Of a stretch of 64,000 nucleotides of DNA, positions 3,370 through 43,457 are shown piece after piece; position 1 is the stretch's first letter, and every line of letters begins with the position of its first letter. Source of the DNA: Escherichia coli (lineage in GTDB: Bacteria > Pseudomonadota > Gammaproteobacteria > Enterobacterales > Enterobacteriaceae); assembly GCF_003018255.1 (NCBI RefSeq), contig NZ_CP027440.1; one strand, given 5' to 3'. The position numbers and the translations under genes were made by a program. Below the pieces are notes generated by a model. The model was not told the DNA's origin. It searched no databases and saw nothing but the letters and a program-made list of their open reading frames with translations.

Positions 3370-4980
3370 ATGAAAAAAATTGCTATTGTGGGTGCCGGGC
3401 CTACGGGGATCTACACCTTATTCTCGCTTCTACAGCAACAAACTCCACTTTCTATTTCTATCTTCGAGCAGGCTGATGAAGCCGGTGTCGGGATGCCATA
3501 CAGTGATGAGGAAAACTCAAAAATGATGCTGGCAAATATTGCCAGTATTGAAATACCGCCGATTTATTGTACGTATCTCGAATGGCTACAAAAGCAAGAA
3601 GCCAGCCATCTCCAGCGTTATGGCGTTAAAAAAGAAACCTTGCACGATCGTCAGTTTTTACCGCGAATTCTGCTGGGCGAATATTTCCGCGATCAATTTT
3701 TACGATTAGTAGACCAGGCACGACAGCAAAAATTTGCAGTGGCTGTTTATGAATCATGCCAGGTTACCGATCTGCAAATTACAAATGCTGGCGTCATGCT
3801 CGCTACAAATCAGGATTTACCCAGCGAGACGTTTGATTTAGCGGTGATCGCCACGGGTCACGTCTGGCCTGATGAAGAAGAAGCAACCCGAACGTATTTT
3901 CCCAGCCCGTGGTCAGGCCTGATGGAAGCAAAGGTCGATGCGTGTAACGTGGGTATTATGGGAACATCCTTGAGCGGACTGGATGCGGCAATGGCAGTGG
4001 CTATTCAGCATGGTTCGTTCATTGAAGATGATAAACAACACGTCGTTTTTCACCGCGATAACGCAAGTGAAAAGCTAAATATTACGTTGATGTCGCGTAC
4101 GGGTATTTTACCCGAAGCCGATTTCTATTGCCCTATTCCCTACGAGCCCTTACACATCGTCACCGATCAAGCATTAAATGCTGAGATTCAAAAAGGCGAA
4201 GTGGGCCTTTTGGATCGGGTATTTAGATTGATAGTAGAGGAAATCAAATTTGCTGATCCAGACTGGAGCCAACGCATAGCCTTAGAAAGCCTGAATGTCG
4301 ATTCCTTTGCTCAAGCCTGGTTTGCCGAGCGCAAACAACGCGACCCATTCGACTGGGCAGAAAAAAATCTCCAGGAAGTCGAACGCAATAAACGAGAAAA
4401 ACATACTGTTCCCTGGCGTTATGTCATTCTGCGCCTGCATGAAGCCGTACAGGAAATTGTTCCTCATCTGAATGAACACGACCATAAACGGTTCAGTAAA
4501 GGCCTTGCCCGGGTTTTCATCGATAATTATGCGGCAATCCCTTCAGAGTCTATTCGTCGACTACTGGCCTTACGTGAAGCGGGAATCATTCATATTCTCG
4601 CCCTCGGTGAAGACTACGAAATGGAAATTAATGAGTCGCGCACCGTCCTGAAAACGGAAGACAATAGCTACTCGTTTGACGTTTTTATTGATGCCCGTGG
4701 GCAGCGTCCGCTTAAAGTGAAAGATATTCCTTTCCCTGGACTACGCGAACAATTACAGAAAACAGGGGATGAAATCCCTGATGTTGGCGAAGATTATACG
4801 CTACAGCAACCCGAAGAAATTCGTGGGCGCGTAGCGTTCGGCGCGTTGCCCTGGTTGATGCACGACCAGCCATTCGTACAGGGACTTACGGCATGTGCAG
4901 AAATTGGTGAGGCGATAGCTCAGGCGGTCGTAAAGCCTGCATCCCGTGCTCGTCGGCGTCTTTCGTTTAATCAAATGTAA
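3370..4980 (+). CDS. ydhS: FAD/NAD(P)-binding domain protein, 536 aa
   Basis: N-terminal GxGxxG dinucleotide-binding motif (IVGAGPTG); synteny. Confidence 0.85.
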   Translation: MKKIAIVGAGPTGIYTLFSLLQQQTPLSISIFEQADEAGVGMPYSDEENSKMMLANIASIEIPPIYCTYLEWLQKQEASHLQRYGVKKETLHDRQFLPRILLGEYFRDQFLRLVDQARQQKFAVAVYESCQVTDLQITNAGVMLATNQDLPSETFDLAVIATGHVWPDEEEATRTYFPSPWSGLMEAKVDACNVGIMGTSLSGLDAAMAVAIQHGSFIEDDKQHVVFHRDNASEKLNITLMSRTGILPEADFYCPIPYEPLHIVTDQALNAEIQKGEVGLLDRVFRLIVEEIKFADPDWSQRIALESLNVDSFAQAWFAERKQRDPFDWAEKNLQEVERNKREKHTVPWRYVILRLHEAVQEIVPHLNEHDHKRFSKGLARVFIDNYAAIPSESIRRLLALREAGIIHILALGEDYEMEINESRTVLKTEDNSYSFDVFIDARGQRPLKVKDIPFPGLREQLQKTGDEIPDVGEDYTLQQPEEIRGRVAFGALPWLMHDQPFVQGLTACAEIGEAIAQAVVKPASRARRRLSFNQM

Positions 4981-10716: not shown

Positions 10717-10917
10717 TTATTTCGCATCCTCTTCGCAAACACAGTGCTGACAATTCAGCAGCCTGATATTAGGCACTCAACTAATACGCTGCTGACTCTG
10801 TCCTCAACACCAGATATTTTCCCTAACCCAATAGTGTATGAGAAAAGATTTAACGCTGATAAACTAATCCTTTATGGTTAGGAGAAAAAATAATGTGATT
10901 ATTCTGGGCTCTTAACA

Positions 10918-10931
10918 TTGATCGTTATCAA
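10918..10931. promoter_or_regulatory. FNR/CRP-type palindrome TTGAT-CGTT-ATCAA upstream of ydhY
   Basis: Perfect inverted repeat in the AT-rich ydhY-ydhZ intergenic region; the ydhY operon is known to be FNR-activated. Confidence 0.4.
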
Positions 10932-11171
10932 TTAAAATCACAAAGCAAGAAATTATAAGTGAACTGATATTTATTATCATTTGAAATAAATTTAACTTAA
11001 CCGACAATTATTTGTGAAGTTCATCGCAGAAAATAAAAATAACTTTATCGCTATAAATTAAAATACACACCGAAATTCGTATAATTTCAGCAGTTGTTAT
11101 TTAGAATGATTAACTGGACCGCAACTGAAGCAAGAATATCAGGATGAAGCTTACCGCCTCATCCTGAATGG

Positions 11172-11381
11172 TCATTTTACCAGTGCGTTAATGACGGTTT
11201 CCATCGCCTGCTTTTCCAGCTCACTGCGCTGAATGCGTTTATTGGCTAATGCTGTACGTAATACGCCTGCGATAACAATATGCTTTGGTTCCTGCCCCAG
11301 ATCGCGCATTTCCAGCACAACTTTACCGACAACTCTGCACATTTCTCGGTACAGTTCATCCTCTTTTGTCCGATTTCCCAT
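11172..11381 (-). CDS. fumD: Small protein, 69 aa (fumarase D / YdhZ)
   Basis: ORF 11172..11381 minus; sequence and position match YdhZ; hairpin caggatga...tcatcctg just downstream at about 11139-11165. Confidence 0.8.
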   Translation of the reverse strand: MGNRTKEDELYREMCRVVGKVVLEMRDLGQEPKHIVIAGVLRTALANKRIQRSELEKQAMETVINALVK

Positions 11382-11695
11382 TCTTTATACCTATTTATCA
11401 TGCCAACTATCAGCATATATCAATCTAACCAATTAAACAAAAATCAAACAAAATCAGACAAATAACGCGATAAATTATTTTAACTGTAGCAATTGAGCGA
11501 TGATGTATTTATACACCGGATGAACTTTCACTTATCTTCACAGTGACAACCCCGGCACCAGACGTTGCGCAAACAGCGAAGTTTTTGCGTAACCTTTTCC
11601 CTGGAACGTTAAATCTTTGATAACAATTTATTGTCTAACAAGTTGTATATTTTTTGAAACGCTGTTTTTGTTTTCCTTTTGGATTAATTTCAGCG

Positions 11696-11701
11696 TATAA
11701 T
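11696..11701 (+). promoter_or_regulatory. Candidate -10 hexamer (TATAAT) of a pykF promoter
   Basis: Consensus TATAAT about 240 nt upstream of the pykF ATG; no strong -35 seen. Confidence 0.35.
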
Positions 11702-11716
11702 GCGCGCCAATTGACT

Positions 11717-11732
11717 CTTGAATGGTTTCAGC
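11717..11732. promoter_or_regulatory. Cra (FruR)-like operator TGAATGGTTTCA downstream of the candidate pykF -10
   Basis: Match to Cra half-site pattern TGAA-N4-TTCA; pykF is a known Cra-repressed gene. Confidence 0.45.
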
Positions 11733-11937
11733 ACTTTGGACTGTAGAACTCAACGACTCAAAAACAGGCACTCACGTTGGGCTGAGACACAAGCACACAT
11801 TCCTCTGCACGCTTTTTCGATGTCACCTATCCTTAGAGCGAGGCACCACCACTTTCGTAATACCGGATTCGCTTTCCGGCAGTGCGCCCAGAAAGCAAGT
11901 TTCTCCCATCCTTCTCAACTTAAAGACTAAGACTGTC

Positions 11938-13350
11938 ATGAAAAAGACCAAAATTGTTTGCACCATCGGACCGAAAACCGAATCTGAAGAGATGTTAGCT
12001 AAAATGCTGGACGCTGGCATGAACGTTATGCGTCTGAACTTCTCTCATGGTGACTATGCAGAACACGGTCAGCGCATTCAGAATCTGCGCAACGTGATGA
12101 GCAAAACTGGTAAAACCGCCGCTATCCTGCTTGATACCAAAGGTCCGGAAATCCGCACCATGAAACTGGAAGGCGGTAACGACGTTTCTCTGAAAGCGGG
12201 TCAGACCTTTACTTTCACCACTGATAAATCTGTTATCGGCAACAGCGAAATGGTTGCGGTAACGTATGAAGGTTTCACTACTGACCTGTCTGTTGGCAAC
12301 ACCGTACTGGTTGACGATGGTCTCATCGGTATGGAAGTTACCGCCATTGAAGGTAACAAAGTTATCTGTAAAGTGCTGAACAACGGCGACCTGGGTGAAA
12401 ACAAAGGTGTGAACCTGCCTGGCGTTTCCATTGCCCTGCCAGCACTGGCTGAAAAAGACAAACAGGACCTGATCTTTGGTTGCGAACAAGGCGTAGACTT
12501 TGTTGCTGCTTCCTTTATTCGTAAGCGTTCTGACGTTATCGAAATCCGTGAGCACCTGAAAGCGCACGGCGGCGAAAACATCCACATCATCTCCAAAATC
12601 GAAAACCAGGAAGGCCTCAACAACTTCGACGAAATCCTCGAAGCCTCTGACGGCATCATGGTTGCGCGTGGCGACCTGGGTGTAGAAATCCCGGTAGAAG
12701 AAGTTATCTTCGCCCAGAAGATGATGATCGAAAAATGTATCCGTGCACGTAAAGTCGTTATCACTGCGACCCAGATGCTGGATTCCATGATTAAAAACCC
12801 ACGCCCGACTCGCGCAGAAGCCGGTGACGTTGCAAACGCCATCCTCGACGGTACTGACGCAGTGATGCTGTCTGGTGAATCCGCAAAAGGTAAATACCCG
12901 CTGGAAGCGGTTTCTATCATGGCGACCATCTGCGAACGTACCGACCGCGTGATGAACAGCCGTCTCGAGTTCAACAATGACAACCGTAAACTGCGCATTA
13001 CCGAAGCGGTATGCCGTGGTGCCGTTGAAACTGCTGAAAAACTGGATGCCCCGCTGATCGTGGTTGCTACCCAGGGCGGTAAATCTGCTCGCGCAGTACG
13101 TAAATACTTCCCGGATGCCACCATCCTGGCACTGACCACCAACGAAAAAACGGCTCATCAGTTGGTACTGAGCAAAGGCGTTGTGCCGCAGCTGGTTAAA
13201 GAGATCACTTCTACTGATGATTTCTACCGTCTGGGTAAAGAACTGGCTCTGCAGAGCGGTCTGGCACACAAAGGTGACGTCGTAGTTATGGTTTCTGGTG
13301 CACTGGTACCGAGCGGCACTACTAACACCGCATCTGTTCACGTCCTGTAA
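11938..13350 (+). CDS. pykF: Pyruvate kinase I, 470 aa
   Basis: Track ORF starts at 11722, but the ATG at 11938 gives the pyruvate kinase N-terminus [19 protein letters not shown]. Confidence 0.95.
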
Positions 13351-40943: not shown

Positions 40944-40980
40944 AACCCGGCGACAAAACGCCGCCGGGGATTTATTTTAT
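40944..40980. terminator. Terminator between convergent fadK and ppsA
   Basis: Stem cccggcg/cgccggg followed by gatttattttatttc; the T tract overlaps the ppsA stop. Confidence 0.55.
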
Positions 40981-43355
40981 TTCTTCAGTTCAGCCAGGCT
41001 TAACCAGGTTTGCACCACGGTATCCGGGTTCAGAGACAGGCTATCGATCCCCTCTTCCATCAACCATGCGGCAAAGTCTTCGTGGTCGGACGGACCCTGA
41101 CCGCAAATCCCGACATATTTGCCCTGTTTCTTCGCGGCACGAATCGCCATCGACAGCAGTGCTTTCACCGCATCGTTGCGCTCATCGAACAGTTCAGACA
41201 CCACTCCGGAGTCACGGTCCAGACCGAGCGCCAGCTGTGTCATGTCGTTTGAGCCAATTGAGAAGCCGTCGAAATATTCGAGGAACTGCTCTGCCAGCAA
41301 GGCGTTGGACGGAATTTCACACATCATGATGATTTTCAGCCCGTTCTCACCACGTTTCAGCCCCTGACGCGCCAGTTCCTCAACCACCGCTTTCGCCTGA
41401 TCTACGGTACGCACGAACGGGATCATGATCTCAACGTTGGTCAGCCCCATGTCGTTGCGCACACGTTTCACTGCTTCACACTCCAGCGCGAAGCAGTCGC
41501 GGAAGCTGTCGGAAACATAGCGGCCCGCGCCACGGAAGCCGAGCATCGGGTTCTCTTCATCTGGCTCGTAACGCTCACCACCGACCAGGTTGGCATATTC
41601 GTTCGATTTAAAATCAGAGAGACGGACAATGACGCGCTTCGGATAAAACGCGGCACCCAGCGTCGCGATCCCTTCAGTCAGACGCCCAACGTAAAATTCA
41701 CGCGGAGAATCAAAACCTTTCATCATCTCGCGGATTTCGTTTTGCAACTGCGGTTCCTGATCGTCAAACTCAAGCAGTGCGCGTGGGTGGACGCCAATCA
41801 TACGGTTGATGATAAATTCCAGACGCGCAAGGCCGACGCCTTCGTTCGGCAGGCAGGCGAAGTCGAAAGCACGGTCCGGGTTACCGACGTTCATCATCAC
41901 CTTCAACGGCAGATCAGGCATCGTTTCTACGCTGGAGCTTTTCACGCTAAATTCCAGCAACTCCGCATAGACGTAACCGGTATCACCTTCGGCACAAGAA
42001 ACAGTGACGTTCTCACCGTCTTTCATCCGTTCTGTTGCATCACCACAGCCCACTACCGCCGGAATGCCGAGTTCACGAGCGATGATCGCCGCGTGACAGG
42101 TACGACCGCCACGGTTGGTGACGATGGCAGATGCTTTCTTCATGATCGGTTCCCAGTCCGGGTCGGTCATGTCAGTGACCAGCACGTCTCCAGGTTCGAT
42201 GCGGTTCATTTCGCTGATGTCATGGATGACTTTCACCGGACCCGCACCGATGCGATGACCGATAGCACGGCCTTCGGCGATAATCTTACCCTGTGAATGC
42301 AGCGTATAACGCTCCATGACCTGACCGCGTGAGCGCACGGTTTCCGGACGCGCCTGCACAATGAACAGTTTACCGGTGTGGCCATCTTTCGCCCACTCAA
42401 TATCCATTGGGCGACCGTAGTGTTTCTCAATTTGTACGGCCTGTTTTGCCAGTTCCTGCACTTCTTCGTTGGTCAGCGAGAAGATGTCACGCTGTTCTTG
42501 CGGTACGTCCTCGATTTTAACCTGCTTGCCGTGCTCCTGGGTCGGCGCGTAAACCATGCGGATTTTTTTCGACCCCATGGTGCGGCGCACGATAGCCGGG
42601 CGATTCGCCGCCAGTGTCGGTTTGTGCACGTAAAACTCATCCGGGTTAACCGCACCCTGCACGACCATTTCACCAAGGCCCCATGCGGAAGTGATAAACA
42701 CCACCTGGTCAAAGCCGGATTCGGTATCAATGGAGAACATCACGCCAGAAGATGCGAGGTCGGAGCGCACCATCCGCTGAACACCGGCGGACAGCGCCAC
42801 GCCACGGTGATCGTAACCCTGGTGCACACGATAAGAGATGGCGCGATCGTTAAACAGAGAAGCAAATACATGTTTCACAGCCACGAGAACGGCGTCAAAA
42901 CCCTGAACGTTGAGGAAAGTTTCCTGCTGACCGGCAAAAGAAGCGTCCGGCATATCTTCTGCAGTAGCGGAGGAACGCACCGCAAACGAGGCGTTTTCGT
43001 CATCGGCGGAAAGCTGTGCATAGGCTTCGCGGATGGCGTTTTCCAGCTCAGGCTGGAAGGGAGTGTCGATAATCCACTGGCGGATTTGCGCGCCCGCTTT
43101 CGCAAGCTGGGTAACATCGTCAATATCCGTTTTATCCAGCAGTTCATAAATGCGCTGGTTTACGCCGCTTTGGTCCAGAAACTGGTTAAACGCGTCGGCG
43201 GTTGTGGCGAAACCATTCGGAACGGAAACACCCATTCCGGAAAGGTTAGTAATCATTTCACCCAGGGAGGCATTTTTGCCCCCAACCCTGTCTACATCAT
43301 TCATGCCGAGTTGGTTATACCAAAGCACCAGCGGTGACGAGCCATTGTTGGACAT
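40977..43355 (-). CDS. ppsA: Phosphoenolpyruvate synthase, 792 aa
   Basis: Pyruvate,water dikinase sequence recognised; full-length ORF. Confidence 0.95.
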
Positions 43356-43442
43356 CGAACAATCCTTTTGTGATAAATGAACGGTTTGAGAAACACATTT
43401 CTGCGCATTTATCTTTGCATATTTAACCGGATGAAAAAAACG

Positions 43443-43457
43443 GTGAATCGTTCAAGC
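43443..43457. promoter_or_regulatory. Cra (FruR)-like box GTGAATCGTTCAAGC upstream of ppsA
   Basis: Match to the TGAA-N4-TTCA pattern about 90 nt upstream of the ppsA ATG; ppsA is known to be Cra-activated. Confidence 0.45.

Follow-up and report, generated by a model that had tools for sequence, protein, structure and literature searches.

The DNA at positions 11673-11732 is best explained as the distal sigma-70 promoter of pykF, pykFp, joined to an operator for the regulator Cra (FruR), with transcription starting at A11709 and Cra acting as a steric repressor. The probability of this reading is estimated at about 0.9. Positions are those of the window, which is the whole 64,000-nucleotide stretch of Escherichia coli DNA that was analysed, and features are on the plus strand unless stated otherwise. 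The pykF upstream region is the already known Cra-repressed pykFp promoter, and there is nothing new in the promoter or the operator. The only element that might represent new biology is an open reading frame in the pykF leader, which is conserved in position and drifts in sequence.

The spacer that carries these elements is 556 bp long (11382-11937) and fits exactly between the start of fumD (ydhZ) and the pykF ATG at 11938, as the initial annotation had delimited it. On its left edge, fumD occupies 11172-11381 on the minus strand; it is a 69-aa ORF with a RefSeq annotation and matches the NCBIfam model NF007630 FumD at E=1.4e-45. Its transcription start lies at 11405 on the minus strand and gives a 24-nt 5' UTR (1753189, minus strand, 7 reads in the table of Kim 2012, converted to the window via the pykF ATG). 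On the right, the ORF of pykF, annotated in RefSeq and encoding pyruvate kinase I, extends from 11938 to 13350. The chromosome is of the O157:H7 type. Used as a query, the spacer is 100% identical to that of E. coli O157:H7 strain PV15-279 and 98.9% identical to that of K-12-type strains, and of 5426 complete E. coli genomes all but one contain it (5425; identity 95-100%). The region from -50 to +40 is the same in the K-12 derivative C600. A related copy is present on the E. coli plasmid pB19374_2 (NZ_CP142917.1), where positions 4001-4916 are a piece of chromosomal origin that shares ~86% identity with the window and that we take to be Citrobacter-like. On this piece lie the pykF promoter, an ORF resembling ynhH, and a pykF gene truncated beside IS26, and its match begins at window position 11652, just before the conserved promoter region.

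The distal promoter has a perfect -10 hexamer, TATAAT, at 11696-11701, which corresponds to pykFP of Olvera 2009 and which, as TATAAT or TATACT, stands at a fixed distance of 17 nt from the Cra box in 78 of the 80 loci compared below. The -35 element TTCCTT (11673-11678) is separated from it by a 17-bp spacer, lies within a conserved T-rich tract, and is weak, agreeing with the consensus at 2 of 6 positions; in Erwiniaceae it reads TTGGTT. A G+C-rich discriminator, GCGCGCC (11702-11708), connects the -10 hexamer to the start. A generic sigma-70 promoter scan does not list the distal promoter because of its poor -35.

Transcription from this promoter has been mapped in two genera. The start-site table for E. 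coli MG1655 contains a pykF start at 1753493 with 88 reads, a 229-nt UTR, and an upstream string ending GCGTATAATGCGCGCCA (Kim 2012); this start is window position 11709, 8 nt after the -10 hexamer. In the dRNA-seq table of Salmonella SL1344, start P732 falls on the base homologous to A11709 and is likewise 8 nt from the -10 hexamer. P732 has 6 reads in the wild type versus 43 in a relA spoT mutant, and these counts suggest that the distal promoter is repressed by ppGpp. Published work assigns the pykF promoter to sigma-70 and reports its repression by Cra. In the promoter catalogue of Olvera 2009, pykFP appears as a known, inferred promoter that starts at -231 and has FruR as its regulator; the source cited there is Bledig, Ramseier and Saier 1996. 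The catalogued promoter string, TGTTTTCCTTTTGGATTAATTTCAGCGTATAATGCGCGC, is present in the spacer, and the catalogued start differs by 2 nt from the sequenced one at -229. The 5'RACE experiments of Olvera 2009 gave no 5' end at pykFP, including those with nearby primers, and recovered ends only at -97, -80, and -34. The mapped start yields a leader of 229 nt, close to the length of about 220 nt that had been deduced from the sequence of the region. The coordinates first given for TATAAT (11696-11701) and for the Cra-type box TGAATGGTTTCA (11719-11730) are exact.

Two other sequence features are located upstream of the promoter. An inverted repeat, TGAAAC-N3-GTTT(T/C), spans 11655-11669, or approximately -54 to -40 relative to the distal start, and is centred ~62 bp upstream of the middle of the Cra box. 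Its arms are conserved in Enterobacteriaceae and its 3-nt centre is variable; it could be the site of another factor or an auxiliary half-site. Farther upstream, a terminator-like hairpin with a T run is found at 11563-11578 on the plus strand, where there is no plus-strand gene upstream to terminate. It is probably a chance occurrence, as the region holds 2 such sites versus 0.8 expected.

The Cra operator CTTGAATGGTTTCAGC occupies 11717-11732, which is +9 to +24 of the distal transcript, and its core (11719-11730) lies at +11 to +22. For Cra, the motif gcTGAAtCGaTTCAgc has been published (Kim et al. 2018). The operator agrees with this motif at 12 of 16 positions and has one mismatch at a high-information position, a change of the central C to G. 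Scoring was performed with a crude weighting of the published motif, for which the ppsA site served as a positive control. By this measure the operator is the top Cra-like 16-mer in the spacer and joint top in the 64-kb window, with a score of 10.5 compared to 10.0 for the ppsA site GGTGAATCGTTCAAGC. The latter is located at 43442-43457, 87 bp upstream of the 792-aa ppsA ORF (40977-43355, minus strand), and is presumably the site of ppsA activation by Cra. Both the pykF and the ppsA site are equalled in score by the 16-mers at window positions 59932, 6554, 3017, and 57250.

Counts of the separate motifs stay close to expectation. TATAAT occurs 20 times in the window versus 26.8 expected, which is at chance level. 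When up to 2 mismatches are allowed, the count for the idealised Cra palindrome TGAAACGTTTCA is 4 versus 4.07 expected. The form taken from the published motif, TGAAWCGWTTCA, is seen twice at up to 1 mismatch versus 0.86 expected, which is not above chance. The composite pattern TATAAT-N17-TGAAN4TTCA is found once versus 0.01 expected, for a pattern that was defined after the site had been seen. The motif statistics of the window alone are uninformative, and the real support lies outside the window, in the comparison of loci and in the mapped starts.

The comparison covers 80 pykF loci fetched across Enterobacterales, from Escherichia to Proteus, Xenorhabdus, Yersinia, Erwinia, Dickeya, and Budvicia. 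The sequence TGAA[A/T]GG[A/T]TTCA followed by GC is present in 78 of them, 211-279 nt upstream of the ATG, and in each of these 78 loci exactly 17 nt separate the box from a preceding TATAAT or TATACT. In a leader alignment of 49 genera the mean column identity is 44%, and the box columns are invariant. The fixed distance between the -10 hexamer and the box across the order fits a position-dependent mechanism. The first of the two exceptions is an assembly of Plesiomonas whose upstream region is different. The second is Rosenbergiella, which keeps TATAAT and has a box decayed to CTGAAAAGGTCTTTAC. In Rosenbergiella epipactidis (-256 to -215 from the ATG) the decay involves an insertion and substitutions, and the distal promoter is retained; this may mark the loss of Cra control in a nectar bacterium.

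The pykF promoter has served as a reporter of Cra activity and metabolic flux, and its variant with a mutated Cra site is de-regulated. The dynamic range of the pykF reporter is reported as small. The supplement of Kotte 2014 does not include the sequence of the mutated site, and the main text of the Cra ChIP-exo paper does not mention pykF. Olvera 2009 places the Cra site 197 nt upstream of the pykF ATG, which would be window position 11741. This position is at odds with the box, which spans -219 to -208 from the ATG. Motif scoring of the spacer found no second Cra-like site near -197, and the sites that rank next in the spacer have weak scores. Another regulator, PdhR, has also been linked to this region: Anzai et al. 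2020 reported a genomic-SELEX peak of PdhR in the spacer between fumD and pykF, together with a clear gel shift and a twofold reduction of pykF mRNA in a pdhR mutant, and the coordinate of the PdhR box predicted there falls inside pykF and not in the spacer.

The manner of repression follows from the location of the operator. The open complex of RNA polymerase covers the initially transcribed region. The pykF operator lies within this polymerase-covered region, and steric repression by Cra is therefore the best-supported mechanism, as inferred from this geometry and from the general positional rule for Cra. According to that rule, a Cra site on or after the promoter represses (Kim et al. 2018). 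The repressing operator downstream of the promoter that had been proposed at the outset is thus borne out by the position of the box relative to the mapped start and by the documented Cra repression of pykF. In the proposed sequence of events, RNA polymerase would use TATAAT with the weak -35 and start at A11709, and the operator CTTGAATGGTTTCAGC would fall within the DNA that the polymerase must occupy for open complex formation and promoter clearance. During low glycolytic flux or gluconeogenic growth, Cra free of fructose phosphates would bind and hinder initiation or escape. At high flux the effector would release Cra, and pykFp would fire. The distal transcript carries a 229-nt leader with the ynhH ORF, a second promoter that bypasses the operator, and a conserved hairpin.

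This second promoter lies in a conserved block at 11783-11836, recognised from the conservation profile of the alignment, which contains the proximal -10 element TATCCT (11828-11833) and ends in CACCTATCCTTAG. In the Enterobacteriaceae alignment the identity of the block to the E. coli base is 0.89, 0.86, and 0.84 at the three codon positions. In the Pectobacteriaceae, the position of the proximal -10 reads TCTATACTTA in Dickeya and Pectobacterium; Dickeya, Pectobacterium, and Brenneria have CATCTATACTTA at the position of CACCTATCCTTAG, which in our estimation resembles a sigma-S extended -10. The proximal transcription start is G11840, 7 nt after TATCCT and downstream of the Cra operator, with a 98-nt 5' UTR. 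It corresponds to the pykF start 1753624 of Kim 2012, which has 145 reads, the same 98-nt UTR, and an upstream string ending GTCACCTATCCTTAGAGCG. In Salmonella, the start P733 is labelled sigma 38, and its distance from P732 is 131 nt, the same as between 11709 and 11840 in E. coli. Moreover, Olvera 2009 gives pykFP4-P5 a high sigma-38 score and also obtained the -97 end by in vitro transcription. The proximal start is apparently a second and stronger one, with a sigma-S-like -10 that is conserved across the order. Since it lies beyond the operator, Cra bound there cannot sterically block all pykF transcription. The initial annotation had expected the start upstream of the box and had named a start beyond the box as evidence against its reading. 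Both starts exist: the one at 11709 is upstream of the box as expected, and the one at 11840 is an addition to it and not a replacement.

With two promoters, Cra control via the operator could be real but minor, most pykF mRNA being made from the proximal promoter, which has a -10 of the sigma-S/sigma-70 type and lies 110 nt beyond the operator. This is the most serious of the alternatives, and we regard it as somewhat improbable. It is favoured by the larger number of proximal than distal reads (145 versus 88) and by the 5' ends of Olvera 2009, which are all proximal and of which those at -97 and -34 were seen by in vitro transcription. The conservation of the proximal -10 block across the order, the sharing of the proximal start with Salmonella, and the small dynamic range of the pykF reporter agree with it as well. 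However, the 15-nt operator is invariant throughout the order and keeps its distance to the -10 hexamer, which argues for strong selection. Furthermore, a comparison of the native promoter with the site-mutated promoter in reporters yields a clear Cra-dependent signal, and the read counts come from one pooled start-site experiment and are not quantitative.

The leader of the distal transcript contains ynhH, a 64-codon ORF with a TTG start at 11736-11930 (RefSeq CDS WP_240806354.1), whose TAA stop (11928-11930) is 7 nt before the pykF ATG. Its product matches Pfam PF23642 over residues 1-64 (E=6.5e-50) and has no NCBIfam model, and recognisable YnhH homologues occur only in Escherichia, Citrobacter, and Salmonella. 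Neither a primary paper nor ribosome-profiling support for the annotation or translation of ynhH was found in the literature searched. In 74 of 79 non-redundant leaders, one frame, followed from immediately downstream of the box, is free of stops up to ~25 nt before the ATG and comprises 64-93 codons, and open runs in the other two frames are typically 16-45 codons long. When only the tested core is dinucleotide-shuffled, 35.3 open leaders out of 79 are expected, compared to the 74 observed. Among genus representatives, 14 of 16 are open versus 6.3 expected (P about 8e-6 if these are independent), and with one representative per family the count is 6 of 7 (P = 0.007). For E. coli alone, an open frame of the length of ynhH is unremarkable (P = 0.13).

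The frame that is open shifts relative to pykF between genera, and the open frame has therefore survived frameshifting indels. Its first codon is either a TTG that overlaps the box edge or a near-invariant TTG/ATG 16-17 nt after the start of the box, the latter being the annotated start of E. coli ynhH. It ends 8-18 nt before the ATG, on the ATG as ATGA in 18 leaders, or 11 nt past it in Yersinia. The pooled pN/pS of the leader ORF over 20 within-clade pairs is 0.98, and dN/dS values of 0.28-0.5 are seen only in comparisons that include E. coli. With pN/pS about 1, YnhH as a conserved protein was rejected outside the Escherichia lineage. These patterns in the aligned leaders suggest that selection acts on the translation of the leader and not on the peptide. 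Another possible frame starts at ATG 11722 inside the Cra box (TGAATGG) and in E. coli and E. albertii is stop-free into pykF, forming a 542-aa ORF (11722-13350). Two of the three leader frames are thus open in these two species, and in other genera the corresponding MVSA... frame stops after 20-68 codons.

The leader also contains a covarying hairpin, GCTTTCCG...CCAGAAAGC, at 11871-11896, inside ynhH and ~40-65 nt before the ATG. In Enterobacteriaceae, 77% of its cells are paired versus 31-51% when the partners are slid; 6 of its 8 pairs change on both sides, and none of 500 shuffles (0/500) reaches its score. Most other genera are also predicted to form a hairpin there, with a sequence unrelated to this one. 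Single-sequence folds have a mean z of -0.95, and 16 of 78 reach p <=0.05. A covariance model of the hairpin, which is short and whose signal is sequence-driven, recovered only Enterobacteriaceae, so that outside this family the hairpin rests on single-sequence folds. The 5' end at -34 of Olvera 2009 (window position 11904) lies just 3' of the hairpin and may be a processing product. Searches of the region 10800-12300 on both strands with the Rfam covariance models gave no match at E <=1, and a sequence scan detected no terminator-like site in the pykF leader. The supplements of Adams 2021 have no pykF entry for Rho-dependent or intrinsic 3' ends in the leader.

At the start of pykF, the block ATCCTTCTCAACTTAAAGACTAAGACTGTCATGA (11908-11941) consists of columns that are invariant or near-invariant in the alignment. 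It provides stops in both frames other than that of pykF, namely TAA at 11921-11923, TAA at 11928-11930, and TGA at 11939-11941. The 30 nt preceding the ATG are nearly invariant, and the Shine-Dalgarno-like sequence is weak. The suggestion that the long leader leaves room for additional control is supported, in that the leader holds the second promoter, the ynhH ORF, and the hairpin. A tentative proposal, which we consider somewhat unlikely at present, is that the leader ORF is a translated uORF conserved across Enterobacterales, annotated (as ynhH) in no more than its E. coli, Salmonella, and Citrobacter form, in which the presence of the frame, its start after the operator, and its end at the pykF start are selected and the peptide is not. 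Its translation on the Cra-controlled distal transcript would either open the hairpin and feed ribosomes to the pykF start with its weak Shine-Dalgarno-like sequence, or shield the C-rich leader from Rho, and the mRNAs from the two promoters would then differ in translational efficiency.

A leader of this kind also allows a different view of the box, namely that it is conserved mainly as a signal in the RNA or in translation, as the 5' end of the mRNA or in initiation of the leader ORF (TTG 11718, ATG 11722, TTG 11736). Candidate start codons are indeed located in or just after the box, its central TGG is invariant although the Cra consensus is TCG, and a TTG/ATG 4-5 nt after it is nearly invariant. 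Nevertheless, this view is very improbable, since the conserved positions are the symmetric half-sites TGAA and TTCA plus GC, which is the Cra pattern, and mutation of the Cra site de-regulates the reporter. The box is kept in Proteus and Budvicia, which have no leader ORF, whereas Rosenbergiella has lost the box and kept an open frame of 75 codons. The conservation of the box is therefore not a by-product of the ORF, and the two features are separable. Moreover, the sole RNA structure predicted at the box is a trivial 4-bp stem formed by the palindrome, with no covariation; RNAalifold on the 49-genus leader alignment, which is too gappy in its variable parts, returned this Cra palindrome only. 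Finally, chance co-occurrence of a consensus -10 and a Cra-like dodecamer in an A+T-rich spacer, with which the single-motif counts of the window and the silence of the generic scan would agree, is refuted by the order-wide invariance with fixed spacing and by the starts mapped in two genera, and the literature on Cra control of pykF also speaks against it.

The pykFp promoter with its operator is a textbook target of Cra and already serves as a biosensor of glycolytic flux. To this picture the comparative data add that the operator and its distance from the -10 are frozen across a bacterial order, that pykF has two conserved promoters of which only one is under the operator, and that the open leader frame drifts freely. 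If translation of the leader is required for PykF synthesis, it would constitute an unrecognised post-transcriptional layer of control on pyruvate kinase, and reporter constructs that contain the leader could not be equated with those that lack it. Pyruvate kinase exerts major control over flux and is hit repeatedly in experimental evolution and in strain engineering.

Compared to known systems, the closest is E. coli K-12 pykFp with its Cra operator (Bledig 1996; RegulonDB, EcoCyc), which, in the form in which Olvera 2009 relays these sources, is the same locus with the same sequence and no substantive difference. The Cra operators of pfkA, tpiA, gapA, epd-pgk-fbaA, and pdhR-aceEF share the regulator, the motif, and the positional logic (Kim et al. 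2018). In contrast to these sites, which cover the -35, the -10, or the start, the pykF operator, at +9 to +24, falls entirely within the initially transcribed region. Unlike these operons, pykF also has a second promoter that bypasses the operator. The Cra site of ppsA has the same motif and a comparable score. However, it is located upstream of the ppsA promoter, where Cra activates, and the opposite outcome is set by position. The lac operator O1 is a palindromic site just downstream of the transcription start, bound by LacI, a repressor of the LacI/GalR family that a sugar-derived effector releases. The pykF system shares this operator logic with lac O1, whereas the protein, the effector, and the motif differ. 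In tnaC-tnaA and mgtL-mgtA, translated leader ORFs govern the downstream gene, and overlapping ATGA junctions are a feature of translational coupling. Similar to these ORFs, the putatively translated pykF leader ORF lies in a long leader, ends at or on the start of the downstream gene, and is conserved in position but not in peptide. In contrast, no terminator, Rho-dependent 3' end, or sensing codons were found in it, and with 64-93 codons it is far longer than the classical leader peptides.
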